From Escherichia coli (GTDB lineage: Bacteria > Pseudomonadota > Gammaproteobacteria > Enterobacterales > Enterobacteriaceae): 64,000 nt of DNA. The notes under the pieces were generated by a model. It did not search any database. It saw only the letters and a list, made by a program, of their open reading frames with translations, and had not been told where the DNA came from. The stretch's first letter is position 1. Every line of letters starts with the position of its first letter. A program made the position numbers and the translations under genes. Below are positions 8,130 through 38,391 of the stretch, piece after piece. The stretch lies in assembly GCF_030013205.1 (NCBI RefSeq), contig NZ_CP122648.1; one strand, 5' to 3'.

Positions 8130-8188
8130 AACAACGACACGAATATAGCGTGCGTTGTCTGATGATTTATAAAAATGAGGCTTTAAAC

Positions 8189-9661: not shown

Positions 9662-9723
9662 TCACTTATCTGGTTTCCCTTTCCACACGGAAAGGGAAAC
9701 CGAATAACGCGCGAGGAGTATTT

Positions 9724-10148: not shown

Positions 10149-12326
10149 ATGCTGCGATGGAAACGCTGTATTATGCTAACATTTATCTCTGGTGCTGCTT
10201 TCGCGGCACCAGAGATAAATGTTAAGCAAAACGAATCGTTACCTGATTTAGGTAGCCAGGCAGCACAGCAGGATGAACAAACCAACAAGGGTAAATCGCT
10301 GAAAGAGCGCGGAGCCGATTACGTCATCAACTCCGCCACGCAAGGGTTTGAAAACTTGACCCCTGAGGCGCTGGAATCTCAGGCCAGAAGCTATCTGCAA
10401 AGTCAAATCACCTCAACCGCACAATCTTATATTGAAGACACACTCTCTCCCTACGGTAAGGTCCGTTCGAACCTCTCCATTGGCCAGGACGGCGATCTGG
10501 ATGGTAGTTCCATCGATTATTTTGTTCCCTGGTACGATAATCAAACCACTGTTTATTTCAGTCAATTTTCTGCGCAACGAAAAGAAGATCGTACAATCGG
10601 GAATATTGGTCTTGGGGTAAGACATAATTTTGATGAATGGTTATTGGGCGGAAATATATTTTATGATTATGATTTTACCCGAGGACATCGCCGTTTAGGT
10701 TTAGGCGGCGAAGCGTGGACTGATTATTTAAAATTCTCTGGCAACTATTATCATCCGCTTTCTGACTGGAAAGACTCTGAAGATTTCGACTTTTATGAAG
10801 AACGCCCTGCGCGCGGCTGGGATATTCGTGCCGAAGCCTGGTTACCTTCTTATCCGCAACTGGGGGGCAAAGTTGTCTTCGAGCAATATTACGGCGATGA
10901 AGTCGCCCTTTTTGGTACGGATAATTTGGAGAAAGATCCCTACGCGGTAACACTTGGACTGAATTATCAACCGGTGCCATTACTAACCGTTGGGGCGGAC
11001 TATAAAGCGGGGACCGGAGATAACAGCGATGTCAGCATTAATGCCACTCTTAATTATCAGTTCGGCGTTCCGCTAAAAGATCAATTGGATAGCGATAAAG
11101 TGAAAGCGGCTCACTCGTTGATGGGCAGTCGTCATGATTTTGTTGAGCGTAATAACTTTATTGTTCTGGAATACAAAGAAAAAGATCCGCTTGATGTCAC
11201 CCTGTGGTTAAAAGCGGATGCCACCAACGAGCACCCTGAGTGCGTCATTAAGGACACTCCCGAAGCGGCCGTCGGGCTGGAAAAATGTAAGTGGACCATT
11301 AACGCGCTTATCAACCACCACTACAAAATTGTCGCTGCGTTATGGCAGGCGAAAAACAATGCTGCCCGCACGTTGGTTATGCCGGTTATCAAAGAGAATA
11401 CCCTGACAGAGGGTAACAATAACCACTGGAACCTGGTGCTGCCCGCCTGGCAGTACAGCTCTGACAAAGCCGAACAAGAAAAACTCAATACCTGGCGAGT
11501 ACGTCTGGCACTGGAAGATGAAAAGGGCAACCGACAGAACTCTGGCGTGGTGGAAATCACCGTTCAGCAGGACCGTAAAATAGAGTTGATTGTTAATAAC
11601 ATCGCGAACGTGCCGGAAGAGAACAACCACAGCCACGAAGCCAGCGCTCAGGCAGATGGCGTTGATGGTGTGGTGATGGATCTCGATGTAACCGACAGCT
11701 TTGGCGATAACACCGACCGCAATGGCGATGCGCTGCCGGAAGATAACCTCACGCCGCAGCTTTACGACGCGCAGGACAAACGAGTGACGTTAACCAACAA
11801 GCCTTGCTCGACCGACAACCCCTGCGTTTTTATCGCTAAACAAGATAAAGAAAAGGGCACTGTCACCCTCTCCAGTACCTTACCCGGCACCTATCGCTGG
11901 AAAGCAAAAGCTGCGCCCTACGACGACAGTAACTATGTGGATGTCACTTTCCTCGGGGCAGAAATTGGTGGGCTAAATGCATTTATCTATCGTGTGGGGG
12001 CGGCTAAACCCAGCAACCTGATAGGTAAAGATAAAGAACCGCTGCCGCTCAACAACACTTATCGATTTGTTTTGTGGCGTGACAGCAATAAAGACGGTGT
12101 CTTCCAGCAGGTCGAAAAACTGACTGACGAAGAGATGGCGCAGTACGACTACAAGTGGGAATTTACCGGCAAGAGCATCAATGGTGAAGTGGGTGCACAG
12201 GCGAACACTTCCAATGAGGACATTGTGATTCCGGCCACTAACCGCGAAGCAGCGCAAACCTATGGCGCACAAGCGGGAGATGGCTTGCAGGGATACGGTT
12301 TACGCGTGCTGTATACCAAAAAATAA
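10149..12326 (+). CDS. sinH: intimin/invasin-like inverse autotransporter (SinH-like)
   Basis: Start chosen at ATG 10149 (signal peptide MLRWKRCIMLTFISGAAFA). The N-terminal beta-barrel region (YFVPWYDN..., GLGVRHNF, GLNYQPVP) is typical of intimin/invasin, followed by Ig-like passenger domains. Position yfgJ-sinH-sinI-ratA-xseA matches my recollection of the Salmonella CS54 island. An AT-rich upstream region spans 9940-10148. Confidence 0.8.
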   Translation: MLRWKRCIMLTFISGAAFAAPEINVKQNESLPDLGSQAAQQDEQTNKGKSLKERGADYVINSATQGFENLTPEALESQARSYLQSQITSTAQSYIEDTLSPYGKVRSNLSIGQDGDLDGSSIDYFVPWYDNQTTVYFSQFSAQRKEDRTIGNIGLGVRHNFDEWLLGGNIFYDYDFTRGHRRLGLGGEAWTDYLKFSGNYYHPLSDWKDSEDFDFYEERPARGWDIRAEAWLPSYPQLGGKVVFEQYYGDEVALFGTDNLEKDPYAVTLGLNYQPVPLLTVGADYKAGTGDNSDVSINATLNYQFGVPLKDQLDSDKVKAAHSLMGSRHDFVERNNFIVLEYKEKDPLDVTLWLKADATNEHPECVIKDTPEAAVGLEKCKWTINALINHHYKIVAALWQAKNNAARTLVMPVIKENTLTEGNNNHWNLVLPAWQYSSDKAEQEKLNTWRVRLALEDEKGNRQNSGVVEITVQQDRKIELIVNNIANVPEENNHSHEASAQADGVDGVVMDLDVTDSFGDNTDRNGDALPEDNLTPQLYDAQDKRVTLTNKPCSTDNPCVFIAKQDKEKGTVTLSSTLPGTYRWKAKAAPYDDSNYVDVTFLGAEIGGLNAFIYRVGAAKPSNLIGKDKEPLPLNNTYRFVLWRDSNKDGVFQQVEKLTDEEMAQYDYKWEFTGKSINGEVGAQANTSNEDIVIPATNREAAQTYGAQAGDGLQGYGLRVLYTKK

Positions 12327-24653: not shown

Positions 24654-26231
24654 ATGACGGAAAACATTCATAAGCATCGCATCCTCATTCTGGACTTCGG
24701 TTCTCAGTACACTCAACTGGTTGCGCGCCGCGTGCGTGAACTGGGTGTTTACTGCGAACTGTGGGCGTGGGATGTGACAGAAGCACAAATTCGTGACTTC
24801 AACCCAAGCGGCATTATTCTTTCCGGCGGCCCGGAAAGCACCACCGAAGAAAACAGCCCGCGTGCGCCGCAGTATGTCTTTGAAGCAGGCGTACCGGTAT
24901 TCGGCGTTTGCTATGGCATGCAGACCATGGCAATGCAGTTGGGCGGTCACGTTGAAGCCTCTAACGAACGTGAATTTGGCTACGCGCAGGTTGAAGTCGT
25001 AAACGACAGCGCACTGGTTCGCGGTATCGAAGATGCGCTGACTGCAGACGGTAAACCGCTGCTCGATGTCTGGATGAGCCACGGCGATAAAGTTACCGCT
25101 ATCCCGTCCGACTTCGTCACCGTAGCCAGCACCGAAAGCTGCCCGTTTGCCATTATGGCTAACGAAGAAAAACGCTTCTATGGTGTACAGTTCCATCCGG
25201 AAGTGACTCACACCCGCCAGGGTATGCGCATGCTGGAGCGTTTTGTGCGTGATATCTGCCAGTGTGAAGCCCTGTGGACGCCAGCGAAAATTATCGACGA
25301 CGCCGTAGCTCGCATCCGCGAGCAGGTAGGCGACGATAAAGTGATCCTCGGCCTCTCTGGTGGCGTGGATTCCTCCGTAACCGCAATGCTGCTGCACCGC
25401 GCTATCGGTAAAAACCTGACTTGCGTATTCGTCGACAACGGCCTGCTGCGTCTCAACGAAGCAGAGCAGGTTCTGGATATGTTTGGCGATCACTTTGGTC
25501 TCAATATTGTTCACGTTCCGGCAGAAGATCGCTTCCTGTCAGCGCTGGCTGGCGAAAACGATCCGGAAGCAAAACGTAAAATCATCGGGCGCGTTTTCGT
25601 TGAAGTATTCGATGAAGAAGCGCTGAAACTGGAAGACGTGAAGTGGCTGGCGCAGGGTACTATCTACCCTGACGTTATCGAATCTGCGGCGTCTGCAACC
25701 GGTAAAGCACACGTCATCAAATCTCACCACAACGTGGGCGGCCTGCCGAAAGAGATGAAGATGGGCCTGGTTGAACCGCTGAAAGAGCTGTTCAAAGACG
25801 AAGTGCGTAAGATTGGTCTGGAGCTGGGCCTGCCGTACGACATGCTGTACCGTCATCCGTTCCCGGGACCAGGCCTTGGCGTTCGTGTTCTGGGTGAAGT
25901 GAAGAAAGAGTACTGTGACCTGCTGCGCCGCGCTGACGCCATCTTCATTGAAGAACTGCGTAAAGCGGACCTGTACGACAAAGTCAGCCAGGCGTTCACC
26001 GTCTTCCTGCCAGTACGTTCCGTTGGCGTAATGGGCGATGGTCGTAAGTATGACTGGGTTGTCTCTCTGCGTGCTGTCGAAACCATCGACTTTATGACCG
26101 CACACTGGGCGCATCTGCCGTACGATTTCCTCGGTCGCGTTTCCAACCGCATTATCAATGAAGTGAACGGTATTTCCCGCGTGGTGTATGACATCAGCGG
26201 CAAGCCGCCAGCTACCATTGAGTGGGAATGA
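24654..26231 (+). CDS. guaA: GMP synthase (glutamine-hydrolysing)
   Basis: 525 aa with a GATase domain (GVCYGMQ) and ATP-PPase motif SGGVDSS. The last 4 codons plus the stop lie inside the prophage attL core. Confidence 0.97.
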
Positions 26232-26233
26232 TT
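26217..26233. repeat. attL core (guaA 3' end)
   Basis: ATTGAGTGGGAATGATT, identical to 55362-55378. It covers guaA codons I-E-W-E-stop. Confidence 0.85.
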
Positions 26234-26277
26234 AACAGCTAACTCATAGCAAATCATTCCTATTCAGATGCCAACTC

Positions 26278-26310
26278 AACCCTCTGTTTTTGCAGAGGGT
26301 TTTTGTTTTT
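26278..26310 (+). terminator. phage-borne terminator now serving guaA
   Basis: AACCCTCTG-TTTTTG-CAGAGGGTT followed by TTTTGTTTTT. Its stem arms are identical to the native terminator at 55403-55432. Confidence 0.8.
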
Positions 26311-26356
26311 ATGTATTCATTTCTATTCACTCTACACCATATTTTTCGGCGGTACA

Positions 26357-26367
26357 GGTGACGGTAT
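26357..26367 (+). repeat. candidate integrase arm-type site (copy 1)
   Basis: GGTGACGGTAT, repeated at 55280-55290 near the other prophage end. GGTAC submotifs lie nearby at both ends. Confidence 0.35.
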
Positions 26368-26381
26368 TACCTTAAAGGTAT
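26367..26381. promoter_or_regulatory. phage palindrome site A (TTACC-TTAAA-GGTAT), upstream of int
   Basis: One mismatch to TTACC-N5-GGTAA. The right half overlaps the -10-like TATACT, 42 nt before the int start. Confidence 0.55.
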
Positions 26382-26423
26382 ACTCTCATACCGTCATGAA
26401 AATGGTTTCTATACGGGTGAATT

Positions 26424-27674
26424 GTGCTTACCGATACAAAATTAAAAAACCTCAAGCCGCAGGACAAACTGTACAAGGTCTCCGATCGTGACGGGCTGTA
26501 TGTAGCTGTGCTTACGTCAGGCACGGTCTCATTTCGTTATGACTACCGTATCAACGGTCGCCGCGAAACACTGGTAATCGGGCAGTATGGGCGTGACGGT
26601 ATCAGCCTGGCAGAAGCGCGGGAAGAACTGATTGCTGCAAAGAAGCTGCTTAAAGCAGGCCAGTCACCGGCTGCGGCTAAACGTGACGGTATCAAAAAGA
26701 TTCGTGGTGCCGAAACGTTTGCGGTACATACCGACAGTTATATGAAACACGTCATCCTGGCTGAAAGTACCCGCGCAATGAAGCAGGCAGTGATCGACCG
26801 TGACATACTTCCGGTTCTTGGCAACAAAATGATGGCTGAAATTACCACATCGATGGTTCGTGATTTGTGTGACCGGATTGTCGAACGCGGTGGCCGGGCA
26901 ACAGCAGTGCAGGCCAGGGAGATCATCAGCAGCGTATACCGTCACGCCAATGACCGTGGTCATGGTTTGTTTAATCCTGCGGCTGACATTAAGCCTTCGT
27001 CTATCGCCATATTTAAACCACGAGAGCGAACACTGACACCAGAAGAAATTGGCCTGTTCTTCCGCACGTTGGATGCCATTGGTGCTATGGGCACTATGAA
27101 AATGGCTTTAAAACTGGTGCTTATCACTATGGTTCGTAAGGGCGAATTCACCAATGCAACGTGGGATGAAATAGATTTTAAAAAATGGACATGGACAATT
27201 CCTTCAGACCGCATGAAGGGAAGCCGGGCGCATGTTATTTACCTGCCTAAACAGGCTCAGGATATATTGGTCGGGTTGCAGATGTGCGCTGGTGGAAGTG
27301 AATATCTGGTTCCTGGTCGTTACAATTTCCGGAAGCCATTATCTAATGCCGCGCTGAACTCTCTGATCGACAGAACGGTGAAAATAATAAATGAAGATGG
27401 TGAGCATATTCAGGATTTCACCGTACACGATATGCGCCGTACAGCCAGTACGTTGTTGCATGAGGCTGGTTATCCTTCAGACTGGATTGAAAAGGCTCTG
27501 GCACATGAGCAGAAAGGTGTGCGCGCCGTATATAACAAAGCGGAATACGCCAGACAGCGCGCCTACATGTTGCAGCAGTGGGCCGATATGATTGATTCCT
27601 GGATTAACGGGGAGCATACGGATCTGATTCCGTTCTCCCCGTCGAAGTTTGAGAAGTGGATGGCGGGGGAATAA
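26424..27674 (+). CDS. int: tyrosine integrase (P4-type, DUF4102 N-terminal arm-binding domain)
   Basis: 416 aa with a GTG start. N-terminus LTDTKLKNLKPQDKLYKVSDRDGLYV. Catalytic region HDMRRTASTLL...LAHE...VYNKAEY. Adjacent to attL. Confidence 0.92.
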   Translation: MLTDTKLKNLKPQDKLYKVSDRDGLYVAVLTSGTVSFRYDYRINGRRETLVIGQYGRDGISLAEAREELIAAKKLLKAGQSPAAAKRDGIKKIRGAETFAVHTDSYMKHVILAESTRAMKQAVIDRDILPVLGNKMMAEITTSMVRDLCDRIVERGGRATAVQAREIISSVYRHANDRGHGLFNPAADIKPSSIAIFKPRERTLTPEEIGLFFRTLDAIGAMGTMKMALKLVLITMVRKGEFTNATWDEIDFKKWTWTIPSDRMKGSRAHVIYLPKQAQDILVGLQMCAGGSEYLVPGRYNFRKPLSNAALNSLIDRTVKIINEDGEHIQDFTVHDMRRTASTLLHEAGYPSDWIEKALAHEQKGVRAVYNKAEYARQRAYMLQQWADMIDSWINGEHTDLIPFSPSKFEKWMAGE

Positions 27675-27677
27675 CGT

Positions 27678-27872
27678 TTAATTATTCTGCTGATTTTCTT
27701 CCATCTCGGCTTCTGCTGCCAGTGATTCAATTTTATCTGTGAATATTGCTGACAGTGTTGCAAATTCAGCATCAGTGACAGCGGGAATTGGAACAAACCT
27801 GATCCCGCTGTGTGCAAGCATGTTTGCAGTTTCAAGGCATTTCCTTAAATCTGATGGTGATGCCCTGTTCAT
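27678..27872 (-). CDS. small phage protein, unknown function
   Basis: Start placed at ATG 27872 (MNRASPSDLRKCLETANMLAHSGIRF...), which overlaps the methylase stop as ATGA (translational coupling). 64 aa with an acidic C-terminus. Confidence 0.6.
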   Translation of the reverse strand: MNRASPSDLRKCLETANMLAHSGIRFVPIPAVTDAEFATLSAIFTDKIESLAAEAEMEENQQNN

Positions 27873-28531
27873 GCTGCACGCTCCCGCCCCTGGTTGTCTG
27901 TTGGTGACAGCGGAGCATTGCTGAATGCATTTGTTAATCTGGCAATATCCAACGCGTATCCAGGGTGTAGTTGCACTGCCGGGTCTTCGCACTGATTACC
28001 CCAAACATCGAAACCATGAGACGACTGGCGGGCGAACAGTTCAATGCGAGAAACATCGCCTAACAATTGCACAAGTTTTTCACGAACGATATCTGGTTTT
28101 CTTGAATGCTCAAGCCGCGGTGCGGTAAATGACTGAACGATCCCTGCATTAATGCGCGTAGGTAGTTTTCCCTTTACTGCAAACAGGCAATCTTCACTAT
28201 TGGCGCGAGTCATGTGACCCATACCCATAACCAGTTTATCTGGTTGTCGACTACCACATTTTATCCACGTGAATCCCTTCATGGTCATCAGACGGAATCC
28301 CCAGGCCTCAACAACTTTTAGTGCTTCGAGTGGTTGTGTTGGCACCCACCACATGGCCAACAGACAGTTTTCATCGGCCAAATCCCACACAGGAAGGCGG
28401 CAGATATCCAGCACACTCATAACCGGATATTTAAAACCGGCACCGCGATTACCATCTGCGGCTTTGTCCCGGTATACCCAGGGTGGATCTGCATAGATTA
28501 GTGTGTATTTCTTAGTCATAAACCACCCCAC
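27869..28531 (-). CDS. MT-A70 family DNA N6-adenine methyltransferase (no cognate endonuclease visible)
   Basis: 220 aa with the catalytic motif IYADPPWVY and MT-A70-like blocks (LLAMWW, EAWGF, FTWIK). Confidence 0.8.
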   Translation of the reverse strand: MGWFMTKKYTLIYADPPWVYRDKAADGNRGAGFKYPVMSVLDICRLPVWDLADENCLLAMWWVPTQPLEALKVVEAWGFRLMTMKGFTWIKCGSRQPDKLVMGMGHMTRANSEDCLFAVKGKLPTRINAGIVQSFTAPRLEHSRKPDIVREKLVQLLGDVSRIELFARQSSHGFDVWGNQCEDPAVQLHPGYALDIARLTNAFSNAPLSPTDNQGRERAA

Positions 28532-28811
28532 AACATCCTATGCCGCTATAGTCGCCACGGCGAAGGCCGTTACCTTTTGTGATACATTGGTCCCTGCGAA
28601 CCGCGATCCTTGCACGCTCAACATCACCAGAAGCAACATCCATACACTGAAGCCAAAGGTGAGCGGCAATGCGGAACTGCCCTTTTTTCTCTCTTTCAAT
28701 CGCGCGTTTTTCGATCTCTATCGCCGCAGGAGTAACGGCGACAATCTTTGACGGACTGCGCATTGAAACCTTGTTCATGTGATATTTTTCAAGTCGGCTT
28801 AACTTTCTCAC
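28512..28811 (-). CDS. PerC/Pch-like transcriptional activator family protein
   Basis: 99 aa with an uncertain GTG start. Core AIEREKKGQFRIAAHLWLQCM...ERARIAVRRDQCI resembles the PerC pattern (LExxGxxRRAAxxW...C). Confidence 0.5.
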   Translation of the reverse strand: MRKLSRLEKYHMNKVSMRSPSKIVAVTPAAIEIEKRAIEREKKGQFRIAAHLWLQCMDVASGDVERARIAVRRDQCITKGNGLRRGDYSGIGCCGVVYD

Positions 28812-28920
28812 TTAATCCAACCCTCTCTGAAAATTAATGCCAGCAGATAAAGCCATGCTGAAACAGAGGCCAGGAATAAGTACCATCCTGACCATTTGCT
28901 CCAGTGCCTTAGCAGCACAC

Positions 28921-29169
28921 TCATGCCGCGTTGCTCACGGGACGATATACACGTTGCTGAACAGGAGGTTTTTTACCCTGGAACTCTGCCGGGCTTGCTG
29001 CCTGACGTTCATCAAGCCAACGCTCAACTTCATCACGGTTCCATGCGCAGCGTTTATCGGTGATATACCAGCGTTTAGGAAATTCCCCTGCGCGCTCCAT
29101 ACGGTCGATAGTGCTCCATGACAGTGGAACCACCGCCAGGAGTTCCTTCTTACCTAATGCACCTTTCAT
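28921..29169 (-). CDS. AlpA-family HTH protein, likely excisionase/regulator
   Basis: 82 aa. LSWSTIDRMERAGEFPKRWYITDKRCAWNRDEVERWL matches the AlpA/Xis-type winged HTH. Confidence 0.75.
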   Translation of the reverse strand: MKGALGKKELLAVVPLSWSTIDRMERAGEFPKRWYITDKRCAWNRDEVERWLDERQAASPAEFQGKKPPVQQRVYRPVSNAA

Positions 29170-29218
29170 AAATACCTCTCTTGGTTGCAGTGCGGCGCGC
29201 GTGGCGCCGCGGTGGTGG

Positions 29219-30160
29219 TTACATAGATGTTTCGTTTAATTCTTCCCGACGAACGCTGTAAACGTCGGTGGCTTTTGCCAGCAGTTCGTCATCATCTGAA
29301 AGTTTTTGTGCAATGTATTTGTAAGCCTTATCCAGTTCGGAGACAGTGCTGTAATTCATCGCTGCGCTGGTAAAGGCCATCAGCATTTCTTCTGGATCAC
29401 GGCTGTCCGATTTACGCGTTTGCTCATCAGGCTTTTTCGCTGGTTTAGCGTTGATCAGACTGTTCATTCCCGCAGCAGTGGTCGTTTGCGGAGTAATGTC
29501 TCGCTCAACGCGCGGTGCCGTTTCCTGTAATTCGTCTGGGGTGTAGACGCCCATGATTACGTCAGGACAGTGCAGGCGAGACCAGCGTTTTGTCGCAAGG
29601 TATGCGAGTTGTTGTTTCGGATCACTGGCCCAAAGTGTGGAGTTTCTTACCTGTGCTTGAGACAGCATTAACTCAAGCACTCGAGGTTGATCCTCGCCCT
29701 TCATGGTTGCCCATACGCGAACACCGCAGCCTTCTTCGTCTTTTAGAGTCCAGCCTGGTGCGATATATGGATTGCCGTTTTTGGATGTTTTCTCAACAAA
29801 CTTACCGATCACGCGTTCCCACGGCCCGAACCACTCGTAGTTGATGCGATCTTTTGTTGGCGACATCGTTGAGATAACTGCGTTTACTAATTGGGCTTCA
29901 TAACCTAGCGTGCCGTTCACAACATGGGTTTTCTGAGCCACGGCAAACGGGTTCATTCCCCACTGCGCAGCCTGCATTGCCACGGCCATGCAATCAGCTG
30001 GTTTCCCGGCGAGGTGCGCCGGTACCGTTACGCGGCTTTGCGCCATTACCTCGGCGAATTTCATCAGTTGGTTCAAGCCGTCTGGGCTGAAAATAGTTGC
30101 AGCAGTTCCAGCGATTGCTGTGTCTACTGGTGCGTTGATGTTTGCGATGTCGTTGCTCAT
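29219..30160 (-). CDS. RecT-family single-strand annealing protein
   Basis: Start at ATG 30160 (MSNDIANIN), overlapping the upstream stop as ATGA. RecT-like core ...WGMNPFAVAQKTHVVNGTLGYEAQL... Confidence 0.8.
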   Translation of the reverse strand: MSNDIANINAPVDTAIAGTAATIFSPDGLNQLMKFAEVMAQSRVTVPAHLAGKPADCMAVAMQAAQWGMNPFAVAQKTHVVNGTLGYEAQLVNAVISTMSPTKDRINYEWFGPWERVIGKFVEKTSKNGNPYIAPGWTLKDEEGCGVRVWATMKGEDQPRVLELMLSQAQVRNSTLWASDPKQQLAYLATKRWSRLHCPDVIMGVYTPDELQETAPRVERDITPQTTTAAGMNSLINAKPAKKPDEQTRKSDSRDPEEMLMAFTSAAMNYSTVSELDKAYKYIAQKLSDDDELLAKATDVYSVRREELNETSM

Positions 30161-30978
30161 ATGTACATATCCTGTTTGCGTGCCCACTCAGGGCGTTTAA
30201 TGATTTCCACACCGCCCCATTCATCATTGATGCGGCATTCGTGATAGGTATTCAGATCCCGGCGGAACAGAGCGTGCCCGGCATCGACATCCTGCGCATC
30301 CAGCTCGAACACGCGTACCGGATACCGACCACAATCAATGCTTTCGCTCACGGCAAGAAAGAAAAAACCATGCGGCTGACCAGTAACCCTCATTGCGCCT
30401 TCGCGGTACATTGCGTCCTGCACGTGGTAGCGGAATTCCTCGATGTGGCGTGCAAAACGGTCCATATCTGCAACCTTTTTCACGTCGACGATCACGTTGT
30501 GCTCGTTCAGCCATTTGTCTGGACGAATTCGGCACAACTCCCCCGTCTCTTCATCGTTCCAGTACATTGATGCTTCGCAGTAACCAGGTGCTTCCAGCAT
30601 CCAGCGTGCCGCCGGGTGAGCCATTGCGCTATCACGCATCAGCTCCAGTTTCCGCCACTGCTCGGCATCAAGTACCGTAATCCCCATATCCGCCACATCA
30701 CGAAGAAATTCCTCTTCGTCAGCTTTACCTTGTTTCGTCCGACGATCGAATTTCGGTGAAACAATGAAGCGTTTGTCGAACTCTCCAGGCTCCAGAAGCA
30801 GACAGTGCAATGCGGTTCCCATATCCAGTGCAGACTTTTTCTCTTCGTCTTCTGGTGCTGCCTGAACCCATTTAAGAAGCGCCGGATTCTTGGCAACCAT
30901 GTCCAGTTGCGACTTACTCACGCCGTCACCGGCGTGGTAGTCTTCGTTGCTGATGTCGAAATAAATTCCCGGTTTCAT
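30157..30978 (-). CDS. PD-(D/E)XK exonuclease (RecE-like, DUF3799-type)
   Basis: 273 aa. N-terminus GIYFDISNEDYHAGDGVSKSQL and nuclease motif IVDVKK. Paired with RecT. Confidence 0.75.
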   Translation of the reverse strand: MKPGIYFDISNEDYHAGDGVSKSQLDMVAKNPALLKWVQAAPEDEEKKSALDMGTALHCLLLEPGEFDKRFIVSPKFDRRTKQGKADEEEFLRDVADMGITVLDAEQWRKLELMRDSAMAHPAARWMLEAPGYCEASMYWNDEETGELCRIRPDKWLNEHNVIVDVKKVADMDRFARHIEEFRYHVQDAMYREGAMRVTGQPHGFFFLAVSESIDCGRYPVRVFELDAQDVDAGHALFRRDLNTYHECRINDEWGGVEIIKRPEWARKQDMYI

Positions 30979-31274
30979 GCCGCGTCCCTCTGCCCATCAA
31001 GCTGATCAGCCAGATCCCAGCGGGCGATAATTGCCATTGCCTCGCGCCGGTAGGCATCCATTAGTTCTTCGAACTCAGGGCTGTCTTTAGCGGCCTCCAG
31101 TACTTCCTGGCGAACGCCTTTAACTGTTACAACGTCGAAAGTTGATGCCAGTTGATGAAGCCGGATACTCTCAATCAGTTCAACTTGTCGGTCATATAGC
31201 TGTTCTGACAGACGGTAGTCCTTGTCGAATGCCAGCATGATTTTTTGAAGATTTTTCTGCTGATTAACGTTCAT
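30975..31274 (-). CDS. hypothetical early protein
   Basis: ORF with its start placed at ATG 31274 (MNVNQQKNLQ...). Its stop overlaps the exonuclease start. Confidence 0.55.
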   Translation of the reverse strand: MNVNQQKNLQKIMLAFDKDYRLSEQLYDRQVELIESIRLHQLASTFDVVTVKGVRQEVLEAAKDSPEFEELMDAYRREAMAIIARWDLADQLDGQRDAA

Positions 31275-31276
31275 TA

Positions 31277-31429
31277 TCAGCCCTCCCATATCTCGTTATC
31301 GTTGGCCACATCGCGAGCTTCTTTGCTGACGAAAGCCCACTTAATGCCTTCCTGTAAGGTGCGGAACTTCCAGCTCATGAATCCGCATGCAGTAACGCAG
31401 TACCAACCGTTGATGATTTTCCACTGCAT
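31277..31429 (-). CDS. hypothetical 50-aa early protein (first gene of leftward operon)
   Basis: Hand-translated MQWKIINGWYCVTACGFMSWKFRTLQEGIKWAFVSKEARDVANDNEIWEG, below the ORF-track cutoff. A GAGGT Shine-Dalgarno lies 10-14 nt upstream, and the ORF sits just downstream of palindrome site B. Confidence 0.45.
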   Translation of the reverse strand: MQWKIINGWYCVTACGFMSWKFRTLQEGIKWAFVSKEARDVANDNEIWEG

Positions 31430-31448
31430 AACTTGTTACCTCGGTCTG

Positions 31449-31463
31449 TTACCGTTGAGGTAA
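31449..31463. promoter_or_regulatory. phage palindrome site B (TTACC-GTTGA-GGTAA), leftward early promoter
   Basis: Perfect half-sites, 19 nt upstream of the 31429 start. The -10-like AATTAT abuts it on the upstream side. Confidence 0.65.
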
Positions 31464-31510
31464 TAATTATGCGTATATGGTTTGATGTCAATAGATATGA
31501 GTTAAAAAAA

Positions 31511-31525
31511 TTACCCGTTAGGTAA
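31511..31525. promoter_or_regulatory. phage palindrome site C (TTACC-CGTTA-GGTAA)
   Basis: Perfect half-sites, located between the repressor-gene terminator and site B. Confidence 0.6.
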
Positions 31526-31535
31526 TCGAATAGGC

Positions 31536-31561
31536 AATAAAAAAGCCGCCATAAGGCGGCT
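31536..31561 (-). terminator. intrinsic terminator of the repressor gene
   Basis: Minus strand reads AGCCGCC-TTAT-GGCGGCT followed by TTTTTATT. Confidence 0.8.
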
Positions 31562-31582
31562 TACTTACTGAAAAATATGGTT

Positions 31583-32167
31583 TTATTGTTTGTTTTTTTC
31601 GTTCTGGTTGATGACAAATTCAATGTAACTTTCGATCTTTGCTTTCTCGGTTTCGGGTAACAATGCGTAGCGCGAGCGATCATAGTTGATGGTCGCAGGG
31701 TCGTGCGGGTGAATCAGTAATTCATAGCCGTGACGCCCGAATGCGGATGCAACATTCTCCAGGGTGGAAATGGAAACGCTGACCTCATTGTTTAACAGGC
31801 GGCTGATTGTCACCTGGGCTACGCCGGATGCGCGGTGAAGTTTTCCCTGTGTTGAAAGGTCGCGGCTTTCGCTCATCCAGCGTTCCAGGTTGTGAGCCGC
31901 CAGCTGGCCAATGTCGCTTGGGCCGACAGGCTGAAAACCTTCCTGAGAAAGCGAGCGATCGATATCAAGCCAGTTACGGGGTTTATTGGCGGCAGCTTCA
32001 ATTTTTCGTGCAACCTGGTCGCCGATAACCTTCTTGCCAAGAGCCCAGCGGTTTACCAGATTTGCCTGAGTTCCAAGTTTTTCAGCCATCCGCGTCTGAA
32101 CACCATTGAATTCACGGTCGATCAAGTCGTTGAGATTTTGCCTGCGGACGTCCTGGATACTTTTCAT
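31583..32167 (-). CDS. prophage repressor candidate with two XRE-type HTH domains
   Basis: 194 aa. HTH 1 is QTRMAEKLGTQANLVNRWALGKK. HTH 2 is QGKLHRASGVAQVTISRLLNNEVSVSISTLENVASAFG. Divergent from a Cro-like gene across a region with three palindrome sites. I see no S24 peptidase-like C-terminus. Confidence 0.7.
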   Translation of the reverse strand: MKSIQDVRRQNLNDLIDREFNGVQTRMAEKLGTQANLVNRWALGKKVIGDQVARKIEAAANKPRNWLDIDRSLSQEGFQPVGPSDIGQLAAHNLERWMSESRDLSTQGKLHRASGVAQVTISRLLNNEVSVSISTLENVASAFGRHGYELLIHPHDPATINYDRSRYALLPETEKAKIESYIEFVINQNEKNKQ

Positions 32168-32222
32168 TTTCTGGAAAATCGCCTCATATATGAATCAGTA
32201 GATGATTCAATTTAAAGCAATA

Positions 32223-32237
32223 TTACCCAACAGGTAA
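32223..32237. promoter_or_regulatory. phage palindrome site D (TTACC-CAACA-GGTAA)
   Basis: Perfect half-sites in the repressor/cro intergenic region. On the repressor strand GGTAATATT supplies the -10-like TAATAT. Confidence 0.65.
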
Positions 32238-32239
32238 AT

Positions 32240-32254
32240 GCACCTCATAGGTAA
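32240..32254. promoter_or_regulatory. phage palindrome site D' (GCACC-TCATA-GGTAA)
   Basis: Degenerate left half (2 mismatches), 2 nt from site D. Confidence 0.45.
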
Positions 32255-32270
32255 CTATCCTTGATTTTTG

Positions 32271-32285
32271 TTACCTTATGGGTGA
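32271..32285. promoter_or_regulatory. phage palindrome site E (TTACC-TTATG-GGTGA), overlaps rightward promoter
   Basis: One mismatch. It overlaps a candidate promoter with -35 TTGTTA (32268-32273), a 17-nt spacer and -10 TATTAT (32291-32296), ahead of the cro-like ATG at 32322. Confidence 0.6.
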
Positions 32286-32321
32286 ATATTTATTATCTGA
32301 AATAAATATCAGGCAATAGCT

Positions 32322-32552
32322 ATGAGCGATAACGGACATTTCGATTTCAAAAAGCACTGGCTTGCACTTACTCCGGATGAGCGTGAAGCCTTCGCACAGG
32401 AAGCCGGAACGACGAGTCACTATATCCAGACTCACTTAACAGGTAAGCGCAAAATGCCAGGTAAAGTATTGATGAATGGGCTTTTTAAAGCCTGTAAAAC
32501 AAGACAATGGCTGCGCTCAAAAGCAGAACTGGCATACTTCTTCTACTCATGA
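32322..32552 (+). CDS. Cro-like small DNA-binding protein
   Basis: 76 aa, divergent from the repressor gene. HTH-like segment EAFAQEAGTTSHYIQTHLTGKRKM. Confidence 0.6.
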   Translation: MSDNGHFDFKKHWLALTPDEREAFAQEAGTTSHYIQTHLTGKRKMPGKVLMNGLFKACKTRQWLRSKAELAYFFYS

Positions 32553-32573
32553 TATCCAGCTACAACCCTCTGT

Positions 32574-32597
32574 AGACCGCCACCCGGCGGTCTTTTC
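32574..32597 (+). terminator. intrinsic terminator after the cro-like gene
   Basis: AGACCGCC-ACCC-GGCGGTCT followed by TTTTC. Confidence 0.75.
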
Positions 32598-32607
32598 ATA
32601 TCTATTC

Positions 32608-32622
32608 GTACCTCAAAGGTAA
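32608..32622. promoter_or_regulatory. phage palindrome site F (GTACC-TCAAA-GGTAA)
   Basis: One mismatch, 11 nt after the terminator and upstream of the replication-module genes. Confidence 0.55.
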
Positions 32623-32702
32623 TAAATAACCAAATCTGGTTGATCTTTTTTTTGTGTCAGCACAAAATGACCGTAATCCCAATACTAATAACAGGGCTTA
32701 CC

Positions 32703-32903
32703 ATGGAAATCATTACACGTATTGATGCCGCAAAGCGCGGACTTAAACGCTACTACACCGGAAAACCATGCAAGCACGGACATGACAGTGAACGCTGGGT
32801 TTACAACGGACACTGTGTTGAGTGCACCATGGAATCAAACCGTCGTATCAGGGCAGAGATTAAGCAGATCATGATTAATTCCTCCCCACAACATTCAAGC
32901 TGA
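32703..32903 (+). CDS. small Cys/His-rich (zinc-binding?) phage protein
   Basis: Start placed at ATG 32703 (MEIITRIDAAKRGLKRYYTGKPCKHGHDSERWVYNGHCVECT...), 66 aa. The upstream part of the track ORF looks non-coding. Confidence 0.55.
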   Translation: MEIITRIDAAKRGLKRYYTGKPCKHGHDSERWVYNGHCVECTMESNRRIRAEIKQIMINSSPQHSS

Positions 32904-32918
32904 TAGCGGAGATTAATC

Positions 32919-33752
32919 ATGAGCAGACATGCAACAGATTGGGCCTGGGAGACAGATCCAGGTAGCTCGTCATTAAAGCTCATACTGCTCTCGATGGCTG
33001 ACAGAGCCGATGAATATAACCTCTGCTACCCCAGCATAGAACGCCTCGTTAAAGACACTTGCCTGAATAAAAAAACCGTGCAGGCCGGGCTTATATCGCT
33101 CATGAAAATGGGGCTTATTTCAGATACCGGAGAGAGAAAGGGAGCGACGAAAAGAGTGCGGGTTTTCTCTCTTAATATAACCAAAAACGGGAACATTAAA
33201 GGCAACCGGGAAGGGGGTAATGGACCCGAAAACGGTAATGTTACCGAAAACGGTAATGTTACCGAAAACGGGAATATACCCAAAAACGGGATGTTGAATG
33301 ATCCCAAAAACGGGATGTTGAATGATCCCAAAAACGGGATCCAGAACCAGTCATATAACCAGTCATTTAACCAAGAGAGGGAGAGCAGGACAAAAAGCGG
33401 GGATTCTGTGCCTCATGACCCCGGCGCAAACAACGCCGTGATGAATAACTTTGTTCCTCCTGGTGGGCCAGGGCAATTAGGCAAATTTGTCATGCATGAA
33501 CAATGGCAGCCATCAGATGACTTTCTTCGGAAAAGCTCATTGCAGGGGATCTACCTGGACAGTCTGCCAACGGCACAGGAACTTGCAGAGTTCAGAATTT
33601 ACTGGATGGCTGAGGGTAAGGCATACCATCAGGCACAGTGGGAGCAGAAGCTGGCAAGGCGGCTGCAGATTAGCAGACAGAAGCAATCAACATTACCTGA
33701 TAACAACGTTCCGCACTGGAACAGCCCTGAAGCATGGGAGGATTTCTTGTGA
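32919..33752 (+). CDS. replication initiator (winged-HTH N-terminus, DnaT-like C-terminus; lambda O analogue)
   Basis: 277 aa. N-terminus LKLILLSMADRADEYNLCYPSIERLVKDTCLNKKTVQAGLISL. The C-terminus WQPSDDF...EFRIYWMAEGKAYHQAQWEQKLARRLQ is DnaT-domain like. The central Asn/Gly repeats are encoded by iterons. Followed by a lambda P-like gene. Confidence 0.75.
   Translation: MSRHATDWAWETDPGSSSLKLILLSMADRADEYNLCYPSIERLVKDTCLNKKTVQAGLISLMKMGLISDTGERKGATKRVRVFSLNITKNGNIKGNREGGNGPENGNVTENGNVTENGNIPKNGMLNDPKNGMLNDPKNGIQNQSYNQSFNQERESRTKSGDSVPHDPGANNAVMNNFVPPGGPGQLGKFVMHEQWQPSDDFLRKSSLQGIYLDSLPTAQELAEFRIYWMAEGKAYHQAQWEQKLARRLQISRQKQSTLPDNNVPHWNSPEAWEDFL
33181..33345 (+). repeat. iteron array (candidate origin of replication) inside the initiator gene
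   Basis: Seven AAAACGG cores at 33184, 33229, 33247, 33265, 33283, 33307 and 33331 (spacings 45, 18, 18, 18, 24, 24). Two 24-bp units CAAAAACGGGATGTTGAATGATCC are identical. Confidence 0.75.
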
Positions 33753-34534
33753 ACAACGTTTTTACCGCGATACAAAACCGTGACGGAGAAGCCCTTTCTC
33801 GCATGTCAGGTTATGAGCATCAGTACGTCAACAATGACAATGTGGTGAACATGTCAGCAGAGAGGCTTGTTGATGCCCTTTTTAAACAGCTGAAACAACT
33901 GTTTCCGGCGGCAGTGGTAACCAACCTGAAGACGCCAGAGCAGGAAGTTGCTGCAAAACAGCAGTGGATTGCTGCGTTTGCCGAAGGGGGGATCCGAACC
34001 CGTGAACAGGTTTCTGCTGGTATGCGCCACGCCCGCGCCAGTGAGTCTCCGTTCTGGCCGTCGCCAGGGCAATTCATCAAGTGGTGTAAAGACAGCAAGA
34101 TGGTTCTTGGCGTCACCATTGACGATGTGATGGCGGAGTTTCACCGGTACAGCAAGGAAAAAAGTTTATATCCTGGTGGTCCCGAAAGATTCCCGTGGCG
34201 ACATCCGGTTATGTACTGGGTCGTATGTGATACCCGCCGTGCAATGTATCAGCGCCAGCTTAGCGAGATTGAGGTTGAGAAACACGCGCGCAGGCTGCTC
34301 GATGATTGGGCGAAAAAGGTGGCTTCCGGACAGCAGATACCCGATCCGGTGATCAGCATACAGGCAAAGCCAGAGCCCATGAGTACGCCTCCGGACACAG
34401 GGAGAGACGTTTACCATCCACCAGGGCGAAGTTTCGGGTGTATGCCTAACGCCGCCACCCTGGGGGGAATAACACCGGCGCAGTGGCTGATAGAGGAATA
34501 CAGGCGGGGAAAGGCGGCAGGATTTATCAAGTAA
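33749..34534 (+). CDS. lambda P-like replicative helicase loader
   Basis: QWIAAFAEGGIRTREQVSAGMRHARASESPFWPSPGQFIKWC closely parallels lambda P as I recall it (RQWVLAFRENGITTMEQVNAGMRVARRQNRPFLPSPGQFVAWC). GTG 33749 is preferred because GGGAGG lies 7 nt upstream and it overlaps the upstream stop. ATG 33734 is the alternative. Confidence 0.85.
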   Translation: MNNVFTAIQNRDGEALSRMSGYEHQYVNNDNVVNMSAERLVDALFKQLKQLFPAAVVTNLKTPEQEVAAKQQWIAAFAEGGIRTREQVSAGMRHARASESPFWPSPGQFIKWCKDSKMVLGVTIDDVMAEFHRYSKEKSLYPGGPERFPWRHPVMYWVVCDTRRAMYQRQLSEIEVEKHARRLLDDWAKKVASGQQIPDPVISIQAKPEPMSTPPDTGRDVYHPPGRSFGCMPNAATLGGITPAQWLIEEYRRGKAAGFIK

Positions 34535-34571
34535 TACCAGCGCGATAGCGCATTTTTTTACGTCTCAATAA

Positions 34572-34586
34572 TTACCCATCGGGTAA
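34572..34586. promoter_or_regulatory. phage palindrome site G (TTACC-CATCG-GGTAA)
   Basis: Perfect half-sites. The -10-like AATAAT abuts the left half. Confidence 0.6.
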
Positions 34587-34633
34587 CAAAACATTCTAAA
34601 CTCTATTGATTTCGTGTCTTATGTGGTTTTTAA

Positions 34634-34648
34634 TTACCTTAGAGGTAA
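34634..34648. promoter_or_regulatory. phage palindrome site H (TTACC-TTAGA-GGTAA)
   Basis: Perfect half-sites, 3 nt before ATG 34652, so the site contains the Shine-Dalgarno AGAGG. The upstream candidate promoter is TTGATT-17-TTTAAT, whose -10 overlaps the left flank. Confidence 0.65.
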
Positions 34649-34651
34649 ATC

Positions 34652-34996
34652 ATGAGAAAACAGATACAGGCTCTTGGTCGACTCAAAACAGGCCAGATGA
34701 ACAAAACAGAATCTGCGTATTGCCAGCACCTTGAGCAGCGTAAACGTGCAGGGGAAATCGCCTGGTATCGATTCGAGGGTATCAAGCTGCGGTTAGCTGA
34801 CAACACGTTCTATACGCCCGATTTTGCTGTGATGCTCGCCACCGGCGAGATGGAACTGCACGAAGTGAAAGGTTTCTGGACCGACGACGCCAGGGTGAAA
34901 ACCAAAGTCGCCGCAGATCAGTATCCGTTCCGAATCATCGGGGTAACGGTTAAGCCAAAGAAAGCAGGTGGTGGCTGGAACATCGAAGAGTTCTGA
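34652..34996 (+). CDS. DUF1064-type phage nuclease-fold protein
   Basis: 114 aa. MNKTESAYCQHLEQRKRAGEI...YTPDF...HEVKG...DARVK pattern (PD-(D/E)XK-like D...E-V-K). Confidence 0.65.
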   Translation: MRKQIQALGRLKTGQMNKTESAYCQHLEQRKRAGEIAWYRFEGIKLRLADNTFYTPDFAVMLATGEMELHEVKGFWTDDARVKTKVAADQYPFRIIGVTVKPKKAGGGWNIEEF

Positions 34997-35057
34997 ATCG
35001 ACGATCTTTTTAGTTATCAATGTAATCAATAAGTTATGTGGATAAGCGAGGGTAAAG

Positions 35058-35447
35058 ATGGAAAGTAATATCAAAGGGTTAGTTGCCGCCGGGCATGAGA
35101 TGGCTTCGGAACTGAAAGCAGAATGTGGTGCCGTTGATATGCGTAGTGTGGCAAAACTGATCAGCGATTTGGCAACGCAACTGGAAGTGCAACTGGTGCG
35201 TGCTAATGCGCTGGCAGCGGAGAATGCAAAGCTGAAGGATTACCTGGCCCCTATAGGGCTGAAGGTTGAAGGGACTCCAACCACCGACGCTGTCCTGGCT
35301 GAAATTGAACGCAAAGCAATCCGCAAGTTCATTAACAGCATTGAACACATCCTGCGTGACAAGTTATCACCGTATGACACCGAAGAGATGCTTGAGGCTA
35401 TGCGTATTTTTCTGGAAGAACAGGGAGGTGAGCAAAAATGGCAATAA
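35058..35447 (+). CDS. hypothetical coiled-coil phage protein
   Basis: 129-aa ORF in the rightward early/middle operon. No motif recognised. Confidence 0.5.
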   Translation: MESNIKGLVAAGHEMASELKAECGAVDMRSVAKLISDLATQLEVQLVRANALAAENAKLKDYLAPIGLKVEGTPTTDAVLAEIERKAIRKFINSIEHILRDKLSPYDTEEMLEAMRIFLEEQGGEQKWQ

Positions 35448-35755
35448 CAAAGCAACGTGTAGAAGAAATCATATCCCGTATTGAAATGTATGGGCATGGC
35501 GCAGGGTATACAGTCGAAGAGGTTTATGACCTTGCTGTACTGGCGCTGAATTTATCAAATATCGCAAAACTCAAGCGATACGAGCTTGATATGGATGGTT
35601 GTGACTCGTTCGGTCAGGATTGTGGCGCTGACATGACTGAAGATTCTGATGGCGATTATGTCCTGTTTGATGACGTGGTTAAGTTGTTTGAGTTTGATAC
35701 AACCACTCAGAAGTTAGAAAGCACAGCAAAGGAGGCAGCCAGTGAGCGAGATTGA
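35438..35755 (+). CDS. hypothetical acidic phage protein
   Basis: 105-aa ORF that overlaps both neighbours by a few codons (operon packing). Confidence 0.5.
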   Translation: MAITKQRVEEIISRIEMYGHGAGYTVEEVYDLAVLALNLSNIAKLKRYELDMDGCDSFGQDCGADMTEDSDGDYVLFDDVVKLFEFDTTTQKLESTAKEAASERD

Positions 35756-37384: not shown

Positions 37385-37753
37385 ATGATCACCGACAAAC
37401 TGTTGATGTTCTCCGAAGCTCAGGCGGTTACGAATACCGCGGCTTCTACTGACGTAATCGATCTCGGTCCAATTGACGGAAAACGTCGTGATATCGGCGT
37501 GGGTTACCCGCTTGAGTTTTGGGCGCTGGTTAACACAGCCGCCGCGGCAAGCGGTGATGCAACTGTAAACATCCAGTTGCAGGCGAGTGAGAATAACAGC
37601 TCATGGACCACTATTTATGATAGTGGCGCACTGGCAAAGACCGCCCTGACAGCAGGTAAACGAGTTGTTTCTGCAAAGGTGCCTGCCGGTGTTCAGCGAT
37701 ATCTGCGTGTTAACTACTCCGTCGCAACTGGCCCACCGGGACAATTACGTTAA
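37385..37753 (+). CDS. capsid decoration/cement-like protein, possibly 3'-truncated
   Basis: 122 aa. MITDKLLMFSEAQAVTNTAASTDVIDLG...YLRVNYSVATGP resembles Bbp16/epsilon15 gp10-type cement proteins as I recall them. The C-terminus ends abruptly just before another junction. Confidence 0.4.
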   Translation: MITDKLLMFSEAQAVTNTAASTDVIDLGPIDGKRRDIGVGYPLEFWALVNTAAAASGDATVNIQLQASENNSSWTTIYDSGALAKTALTAGKRVVSAKVPAGVQRYLRVNYSVATGPPGQLR

Positions 37754-37794
37754 CGGCAAGCGCCTCTATTTTTGGCGCGGAGCAGGTAGGCAAA

Positions 37795-38391
37795 TTGTTC
37801 TATCTGGAACAGCCTGCAGTGGATTCTGTGCCGGTAACCAGCAATACCGCTGTAGTGGTTCGTGCCAACAGGAACGTCCCGCCATCCCTCAGGAATACGG
37901 CCACCACGAACTGGCAGATGGCGCGCCGGACATTTGGAGGCCTGTCTCATCTTGAAGGCCAGACCGTAAACATTCTCTCTGATGCGAGCGTGGAACCACA
38001 GAAAGTGGTTTCCGGAGGTGCCGTCACGCTGGAATCTCCGGGGGCTGTAGTGCACATCGGCCTGCCAATAACTGCTGAATTCGAAACACTGGATATCAAC
38101 ATTAACGGACAGGAAACGCTGCTGGACAAAAAACAGGTGATCCCCTCCGTTACTCTGGTTGTGAATGCCAGTCGCGGCATCTGGGCGACTACGCCTGGCG
38201 GTAAATGGTACGAATATCCACAGCGTGAATTCGAGTTCTACGATGATCCTGTTGATGATGCTACCGGAAAAGTAGAAGTGAAACTGGACAGTAACTGGGG
38301 CAAAAACGGACGTGTAAAAATCCGTCAGCTTGATCCGTTGCCGCTGTCTGTTCTTGCCGTTATTCCTCGCCTTACTGTTGGGGGATTTTGA
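37795..38391 (+). pseudogene. virion/tail protein, C-terminal remnant
   Basis: The frame opens only at 37714, with no ATG (a TTG at 37795) and no Shine-Dalgarno. The translated ...GGLSHLEGQTVNILSDASV...GLPITAEFETLDI... looks like an internal-to-C-terminal part of a larger structural protein. Confidence 0.4.

Follow-up and report, generated by a model that had tools for sequence, protein, structure and literature searches.

A 64,000-nt stretch of Escherichia coli DNA (contig NZ_CP122648.1 of assembly GCF_030013205.1), referred to here as the window, contains an intact guaA gene, encoding guanosine monophosphate (GMP) synthase, into whose last codons a prophage has integrated. Between the guaA stop codon and its own integrase gene, int, the prophage places a hairpin, and the relation of that hairpin to the native guaA terminator, now at the far end of the insert, is the subject of this analysis. 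The limits of guaA (24654-26231, + strand) were taken from the list of open reading frames (ORFs) and from comparison with strain K-12, to whose GuaA the encoded protein is identical at 524 of 525 positions, with the C-terminal end PPATIEWE. When up to two mismatches are allowed, the 17-mer ATTGAGTGGGAATGATT occurs at just two places in the window (0.01 chance matches expected). One, attL, lies at 26217-26233 (+) within guaA, where it reads ATT GAG TGG GAA TGA plus TT and specifies I-E-W-E-stop; its first 11 bp (26217-26227) are common to all host attB variants. The other, attR, is an exact match at 55362-55378 (+) and agrees with the alignments of the right flank. A preliminary description of this DNA had named these two copies as the attachment core and had proposed that the coding sequence is restored exactly, and both statements hold: the target ORF is unchanged after integration, with its distal part supplied by the element, as is characteristic of elements that bring a replacement 3' end.

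The preliminary description had also suggested alignment with the uninterrupted K-12 site, which we carried out along with a search of the window flanks against 5426 complete E. coli genomes (query position 334 corresponds to window position 26233 on the left, and query position 463 to window position 55362 on the right). The left flank was matched in 5425 of these genomes. Where the insert is absent, the left alignment ends at 26233 and the right alignment begins at 55362, and K-12 has a single copy of the 17-mer, followed 24 nt on by the native hairpin and then by yfgI; the empty-site alignments and the single K-12 copy thus establish that attB equals the core in E. coli. A direct repeat that stands at both junctions and is single copy in empty sites is the mark of a tyrosine integrase, and guaA is joined to this same int in 567 of the 5426 genomes (~10%).

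Each copy of the core is followed by a hairpin. The phage hairpin, a predicted intrinsic terminator or attenuator at 26278-26311 (+), begins 44 nt past the left core and consists of AACCCTCTG (26278-26286), the loop TTTTTG (26287-26292), and CAGAGGGTT (26293-26301), with TTTGTTTTT running to 26310, that is, 10 pairs followed by the U-tract expected of an intrinsic terminator. The native guaA terminator, AAAACCCTCTG-TTACTA-CAGAGGGTTTTTT (55403-55432, +), is the same as in K-12 and now lies 29 kb from guaA; it starts 26 nt past the core in this strain (24 nt in K-12). Its stem arms, AACCCTCTG at 55405-55413 and CAGAGGGTT at 55420-55428, enclose the loop TTACTA (55414-55419) and precede a T-run to 55432. 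The preliminary description had reported a hairpin about 45 nt past the core with stem arms identical to those of the displaced terminator, and its coordinates and sequences were correct. Both hairpins score as terminator-like on the + strand, with folding energies of -16.5 (phage) and -17.8 (native) kcal/mol and z about -4.6, and no shuffled sequence folded as stably as either. The native hairpin has a U-tract on both strands and hence also faces yfgI (DUF5384; 55471-56010, - strand, from the ORF list and K-12 annotation), the convergent host gene beyond it, whereas the phage hairpin has its U-tract on the + strand only. Between the Rz stop codon and the core, we found no terminator-like site, and no sigma-70-like promoter was found between the phage hairpin and int. 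Rfam reports no family at either hairpin, and a literature search found no small RNA (sRNA) from the guaA 3' untranslated region (UTR) in enteric bacteria. From its structure, we infer that the hairpin acts as a terminator or attenuator.

The insert is the 29.1-kb body of a Uetakevirus-like prophage (26234-55361), recognized by blastn against phiV10 and megablast against phages. It matches phiV10, epsilon15, ZX5, TL-2011b, and relatives in the genus Uetakevirus; window positions 26217-35238 are 97.8% identical to phiV10 26720-35736, further blocks are collinear, and both similarity and gene order are those of the genus. The prophage lacks two segments of the phiV10 map, 1-6904 and 7652-10977, and leaves no space in which they could lie: in the blastn comparison, the sequence passes from the end of the phiV10 map straight to phiV10 6905, and from phiV10 7652 to 10977, at window positions near 36989 and 37736-37834. 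These gaps in the phiV10 map mean that packaging and virion genes are missing, with a loss of ~10 kb that takes in terS, terL, the portal and protease genes, most of the major capsid (head) gene, and ~3.3 kb of tail genes; no complete packaging and virion module (terminase, portal, protease, capsid, tail) was found in the phiV10 comparison. By its gene content, the prophage is a defective member of Uetakevirus. It retains attL, attR, int, and an AlpA-like gene. The int gene (26424-27674, +), co-oriented with guaA, encodes a tyrosine integrase with Pfam domains PF13356 (Arm-DNA-bind_3), PF22022 (Phage_int_M), and PF00589 (Phage_integrase), all above cut-off, which is the arm-binding N-terminal, core-binding, and catalytic set of the lambda/P4-type enzymes; the int region has 97.8% nucleotide identity to that of phiV10. 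The AlpA-family small regulator (28921-29169, -), found as an ORF and by mapping onto the phiV10 annotation as a homologue of phiV10p36, is a candidate excisionase. The last late genes form a lysis cassette (53454-55251, +, from ORFs and the phiV10 annotation) of membrane protein, holin, endolysin, and an Rz/Rz1-like DUF2514 protein, which is oriented toward attR; in the prophage, it reads on into the native guaA terminator.

Integration of such phages at guaA is known. For ZX5, attgagtgggaatgatt was identified by PCR and sequencing as the attP/attB core at the guaA 3' end, the same guaA core was stated for phiV10 and epsilon15, and excision and integration activity was shown experimentally for ZX5, a relative of the window prophage (PMC9782041). 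Taken with the identity of the insert, this study confirms the statement of the preliminary description that epsilon15/phiV10-type phages use guaA as attB. In the GenBank records of epsilon15 and phiV10, the hairpin is annotated as a rho-independent terminator, and around it the epsilon15 record also annotates Int arm sites, integration host factor (IHF) sites, and RNase III sites. The comparison of attP with these two phages that had been proposed was made, and it shows the same core and the same hairpin. The likeness to epsilon15, phiV10, and vB_EcoP_ZX5 thus takes in the 17-bp core, its place ~190 bp upstream of int, and the hairpin, with attP 95-99% identical among the E. coli phages; the window copy differs from them in being defective and without ~10 kb. 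The guaA integration system, its 17-bp core, and the annotation of the hairpin are therefore already known. What is added here is the homology between the phage hairpin and the native terminator, the narrowing of the crossover to 11 bp, and the conserved position of a hairpin in the guaA-specific integrase family. Homology with the guaA terminator is stated neither in PMC9782041, which mentions no terminator, nor in the phage GenBank records; the epsilon15 genome paper lay outside this comparison.

The attP site, with core ATTGAGTGGGAATGATT ~190 bp upstream of int and attB at the guaA 3' end, has the arrangement of Uetakevirus. The P' arm opens with a 44-nt phage spacer (26234-26277, +) that contains CTATTCA and is conserved among 15 attP sites. 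The repeat GTGACGGTAT occurs in 5 copies in the window, against 0.1 expected, and on both sides of the core, as arm-type integrase sites do. The putative P' arm-type copy (26358-26367, +) was found by repeat search and is annotated in epsilon15; the putative P arm-type copy (55281-55290, +) is an invariant block in 15 of 15 attP sites and is likewise annotated there, as are three further copies in the 5' part of int, at 26593-26602 (+), 26683-26692 (+), and 26936-26945 (-). The window sites stand at the same relative positions as the epsilon15 sites annotated "integrase binding." A perfect 9-bp inverted repeat links GGAATGATT (26225-26233) in the core with AATCATTCC (26252-26260) in the phage spacer; other attP sites conserve it in part, and it may be a core-type binding pair.

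The 15 attP sites that we aligned come from phages of four host genera (E. coli, Salmonella, Enterobacter, Klebsiella): the window attP, rebuilt from attR and attL, epsilon15, phiV10, SPN1S, PAT1, VB_ST_E15, BUCT554, Tyrion, BUCT711, one Klebsiella prophage, and five IMG/VR contigs. In all 15, the left stem arm is invariant, and the right arm shows only A-to-G transitions, which turn U-A into U.G pairs. Loops vary (TTTTTG, TTTTTA, TAATTA, TAAAAA, TTTATC), attP is at its most variable in the 8-10 nt 5' of the stem, and the T-tract persists. An invariant arm, changes limited to G.U, a variable loop, and a kept T-tract fit selection acting on an RNA hairpin. Every member of the phage family aligned has the hairpin together with the int/attP module, and three phages with a related DUF2514 Rz gene that lack a guaA-type integrase have no such hairpin after Rz; on account of these three phages, the hairpin is to be counted as part of the int/attP module, not of the lysis cassette. 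Two attP sites (L215 and L240) have the loop TAAAAA in place of TTTTTA, an exact inversion of the loop, with the stem unchanged.

Other hosts of these phages allowed the native terminators to be compared as well. A first scan of IMG/VR returned E. coli host flanks only, and a second, with the Salmonella-phage-type P arm, returned further host types, here called Types A, B, and C and read from attR. In a K. pneumoniae prophage record that includes both junctions, the native guaA ends ATTGAGTGGGAGTAA, and 27 nt later comes AACCCTCTG-TGTTTA-CAGAGGGTT. In Type A, the GAATAA end of guaA is followed by a 46-nt spacer and then by AACCCTCTG-TTTTTG-CAGAGGGTT, which is the phage hairpin of the window, loop included. 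The Type A host is very probably Salmonella enterica, because its prophage matches the S. Typhimurium phages SPN9TCW, SPC32H, and SPN1S at 100% identity over 6076 nt, a stretch that includes the tailspike; the probable Salmonella pattern would then be a guaA end GAATAA with AACCCTCTGTTTTTGCAGAGGGTT at +46 nt. The host hairpins of Types B and C are AGCCCTCTG-TTTA-CAGAGGGCT and AACCCTCTA-TTTA-TAGAGGGTT. E. coli, K. pneumoniae, and the presumed Salmonella host thus have the same 9-bp stem in their native guaA terminators, and two further hosts show compensatory stem changes (A-U to G-C; G-C to A-U). Native spacers range from 9 to 46 nt, and spacers and downstream genes are unrelated between hosts, the hairpin excepted. 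No integrase or int remnants were found downstream of the Type A, B, and C native flanks.

Several tests bear on whether the phage and native hairpins share an origin. In a 15-sequence alignment that included native copies, 97.8% of cells were paired, against 26-67% in slid controls. MAFFT misplaced gaps in hairpins with short loops (L171 in alignment A2; Types B and C in alignment A3); A2 was used for pairing, and its three unpaired cells all come from the shifted L171 row. Covariation is modest, with two pairs compensatory, both among native copies, and three pairs changing to G.U only, so that pairing is maintained. Local alignment of the phage P' arms to the native flanks gave z about 5 to 21 relative to shuffles, highest for the Salmonella-type flank, whose native hairpin has a loop identical to that of the phage and the same offset, 50 nt after GGGA. 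The AACCCTCTG stem occurs at 118 distinct sites in the ~2 Mb of DNA that was fetched, each of them within 90 nt of a guaA end. Judged by these sequence comparisons, the phage hairpin is a homologue of an old enterobacterial guaA terminator and not a chance resemblance. The earlier suggestion that the element mimics the terminator of its target was thus right in that the hairpin is homologous to the native one; the mimicry is not tuned to E. coli, because the best native match is the Salmonella-type terminator and the hairpin is a feature of the P' arm throughout the phage family.

Where attB and attP differ, the junctions also show where strands are exchanged. In Klebsiella and Salmonella-type lysogens, attL has the phage version (GAATGATT...), with the phage GAA TGA replacing the host GAG TAA or GAA TAA, and attR has the host version (GAGTAA..., GAATAA...), which places strand exchange within the 11-bp ATTGAGTGGGA. 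The core of the genomic island GIsul2, GAGTGGGA, agrees with exchange within this segment. It follows that the phage supplies the third base of the last Glu codon at attL, as well as the stop codon and the TT. The functional crossover segment would then be shorter than 17 bp, with the E. coli identity exceeding the functional core; the 17-bp core of the preliminary description is exactly the repeat that distinguishes empty from occupied sites in E. coli, and its extent as a crossover region needs to be reduced in light of the Klebsiella and Salmonella-type junctions. Narrowing the crossover to 11 bp should help in annotating attL and attR where attB differs from attP.

Our favored reading, to which we give a probability of about 0.8, is that the window holds a defective epsilon15/phiV10-type prophage at the known guaA attB, with a hairpin that is homologous to the native terminator and takes over the ending or attenuation of guaBA transcripts ahead of int. 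The phage would most probably have acquired it from a Salmonella-like guaA 3' flank, and selection for RNA pairing would then have maintained it. Several observations weigh against this account or limit it. Homology is confined to ~30-35 nt, the hairpin and its T-tract, and neither the spacer nor the P arm nor the far 3' flank shows significant similarity (p about 0.05-0.1, shuffles); with homology only at the hairpin, capture by the phage and transfer in the opposite direction cannot be told apart. In shuffle tests, the phage spacer has no detectable homology to host spacers, and even against the Salmonella native spacer, at the same offset, 18 of 50 positions are identical (p about 0.1), which leaves contiguous capture unsupported. 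The Salmonella identity of Type A comes from the prophage match and not from a Salmonella genome. Finally, some phage hosts have a different guaA terminator (an Enterobacter metagenome-assembled genome [MAG], L040, and the host of L154), and a terminator match is therefore dispensable for lysogeny. An apparent resemblance of the phage P arm to the guaA coding end in a first MAFFT alignment was dropped, as it did not rise above shuffles (p about 0.06).

Other elements published as integrating at the guaA 3' end are GIsul2, ICERspD18B, Tn5801, and streptococcal elements. A scan of genome contigs for the exact 17-mer, in which the matches listed were mostly from distant taxa with no E. coli or Salmonella among them, found it ending guaA in >120 species, from Enterobacterales to Clostridia and archaea and across many phyla. 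Recurrent element-type sequences often follow the 17-mer: a gamma/beta-proteobacterial family with TCTGGCA repeats, an alphaproteobacterial type "...CTATCGGTGGGCA," and a Clostridia type "GTGGCAACGATTTGGCAACA." This suggests that TGATT after GGGAA is often borne by an element. The integrase of a Citrobacter guaA island has 53% amino-acid identity to the prophage int, without gaps, and in 9 of 10 listed loci with ~53-54% identical integrases (one a partial match, 69%), a terminator-like hairpin lies 48-51 nt after GGGA, with at least four different stems. Among the matches listed, ~20 alphaproteobacterial loci with integrases 44-51% identical have no such hairpin. GIsul2-type islands thus resemble the prophage in the guaA target, a core with GAGTGGGA, a full-length integrase of 53% identity, the order guaA-core-hairpin-int, and the hairpin offset; they differ in that they are not phages, in arm repeats of TCTGGCA type instead of GTGACGGTAT, and in their hairpin stems (AAGCCCGC and others).

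Several guaA genes (in Raoultella, Tatumella, Rosenbergiella, Pseudomonas, and others) are followed by an island-type arm with its hairpin but by no integrase homologue within 2.4-7.5 kb (loci L004, L011, L023, L069, L037, L028, L052, L116, and L024). These arms are probably relics of lost islands, with the hairpin now ending guaA. Native guaA terminators in Rahnella, Pantoea, and Enterobacter share the island stem AAGCCCGC/GCGGGCTT; we considered this as a second case of terminator homology and rejected it, the stem being generic and also present at unrelated sites (window ~47109 and L056).

Among the alternatives, one reverses the direction of transfer, taking the native guaA terminators to be relics of P' arms left by ancient guaA elements. 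In its favor, the integrase-less island arms show that an arm may persist after its element is gone, the native hairpin of the Salmonella-type flank lies at the 50-nt offset canonical for the elements, and the E. coli guaA end equals the phage version for 6 nt past the crossover segment, unlike the Klebsiella and Salmonella-type ends. Yet native stop regions differ from that of the phage in four of five host types, and the native spacers, alike by eye within Salmonella-type/Type B and within E. coli/Klebsiella, in no case match the phage spacer. Compensatory changes are found only among native copies, which suggests a long vertical history, and the lack of int remnants downstream also speaks against resident arms of elements. 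We consider this reversal unlikely; transfer from element to host is possible, and it is less parsimonious than transfer from host to element.

A second alternative sees in the hairpin a piece of attP DNA architecture, such as a cruciform or a site for binding or bending by IHF, Int, or Xis, and no RNA terminator. Its position inside attP, between the core and the P' arm-type site, would suit such a role, as would the overlapping IHF site annotated in epsilon15, the CTATTCA repeats that flank the hairpin, and the hairpins of unrelated stem that guaA islands carry at the same offset. The stem changes of the phages tell against it, in that all of them give G.U pairs, which are tolerated in RNA and mismatched in DNA, and so does the T-tract, conserved on one strand only. 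The hairpin-less alphaproteobacterial branch further indicates that recombination by this integrase family does not need the hairpin, and its fixed offset can be attributed to the general intolerance of attP to indels. While an additional DNA role alongside the RNA role is possible, a purely architectural one seems to us quite improbable. We think very little of a third alternative, that the hairpin is a terminator of the late (lysis) operon whose resemblance to guaA is coincidental or convergent, for although it is the first terminator-like site after the lysis genes, where any phage needs a terminator, the identical 9-bp stem and matching T-tract, the shared Salmonella-type loop and offset (z up to 21), the exclusive association of the stem with guaA in the fetched DNA (118/118), the three Rz-related phages without the hairpin, and the fact that it tracks the int/attP module all oppose coincidence. 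A role as late terminator is itself compatible with homology to the guaA terminator, and only the coincidence is rejected.

The consequences for transcription can be followed through integration. In the lysogen, the order is guaA, phage hairpin, int at one end and lysis operon, native hairpin, yfgI at the other; in the excised phage, it is lysis operon, core, phage hairpin, int, with the phage hairpin as the first terminator-like site, ~170 nt after Rz/Rz1, so that it would serve two transcription units. The tyrosine integrase would carry out exchange within ATTGAGTGGGA, leaving everything rightward at attL as phage DNA. After integration, the phage hairpin would end or attenuate guaBA transcripts just upstream of int, limiting read-through, and the displaced native terminator would end the phage lysis operon at attR while still serving yfgI. 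Integration would in this way swap transcription units between the two homologous terminators, with roles reversed in the excised phage. The preliminary description expected the hairpin to insulate int; by analogy with the integrative element ICEKp1, it may attenuate read-through from guaBA into int rather than block it.

At its tRNA-Asn target, ICEKp1, the nearest functional precedent, displaces the terminator and has state-dependent int transcription driven by a host promoter, with attenuating stem-loops in the 5'UTR shown experimentally (PMC13023037, 2026). The window has the same geometry, with int co-oriented and ~160-200 bp past the target gene, the native terminator moved to the far end of the element, and an element stem-loop between target and int, which in ICEKp1 cuts read-through from the host promoter. 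The differences are that ICEKp1 targets a tRNA gene, that no homology of its stem-loops with the displaced terminator is reported, and that the function of the window hairpin is predicted, not shown.

In phage 21 and e14, which integrate at icd, and in the tRNA-integrating P4, P22, and HP1, the target gene stays functional because the element brings a replacement for its 3' end; what is duplicated there is coding or tRNA sequence that adjoins the core directly. Here, unlike in those elements, the duplicated coding sequence amounts to a few bases, and a separate, noncontiguous block, the terminator, is homologous as well. An element of this kind keeps the essential and highly expressed guaBA operon whole, restoring both the reading frame and the transcript end, with its own int behind; the comparative data make the terminator part of a portable int/attP module. 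If the hairpin attenuates, guaBA promoter activity, and with it purine status and growth rate, could be coupled to int expression. None of this calls for a major change to current understanding.

A broader proposal is that guaA-specific modules, in the phages and islands of one integrase family, carry a built-in replacement terminator ~50 nt past the crossover and that terminators are exchanged in both directions between host and element, Uetakeviruses having a captured Salmonella-type terminator and relic island arms becoming resident guaA terminators in other species. Such traffic, or else a role of the guaA 3' end that depends on its sequence, would then account for the unusual identity of the stem in three host genera, in place of ordinary vertical conservation. 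We put this forward tentatively and think it rather doubtful.

The remaining observations concern the surroundings of guaA and other parts of the window. In nine loci (L145, L164, L211, L227, L238, L129, L230, L168, and L237), an epsilon15-like attR core is followed directly by a GIsul2-like arm (CGTCTGGCA...AAGCCCGCGTAACTGCGGGC), tandem arrays of two element families at one guaA site. In five E. coli loci (L148, L174, L191, L172, and L200) and one of Type B (L260), GTGCACAGAAAACCCCCAGCTAGGCTGGGGGTTCCGGAAAGC replaces the usual flank right after the native terminator and may be the end of another mobile element inserted behind it; in a Salmonella-type flank (L255), a fragment of an IS3-family transposase lies ~140 nt past the guaA terminator. 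Beyond the guaA terminator, Klebsiella and Salmonella-type hosts carry unrelated genes, and this region is highly variable across genera. In E. coli, yfgI has ~69% nucleotide identity to upf50.0 of phages P7 and P1. In two archaeal MAGs, L013 (270-344) and L099 (6017-6092), ARAGORN predicts a tRNA-Asn ~60-100 nt after a guaA that ends in the 17-mer. Within the prophage, in the region that matches the phiV10 Bro-N antirepressor, an Rfam match to C4 antisense RNA (49048-49135, -; 78.6 bits) adjoins one to the isrK Hfq-binding RNA (49154-49230, -; 74.7 bits), a pair that looks like an antisense immunity module of the P1/P7 type. The host part of the window contains a match to the Rfam sRNA family sroE at 4859-4950 (+; 116.6 bits).

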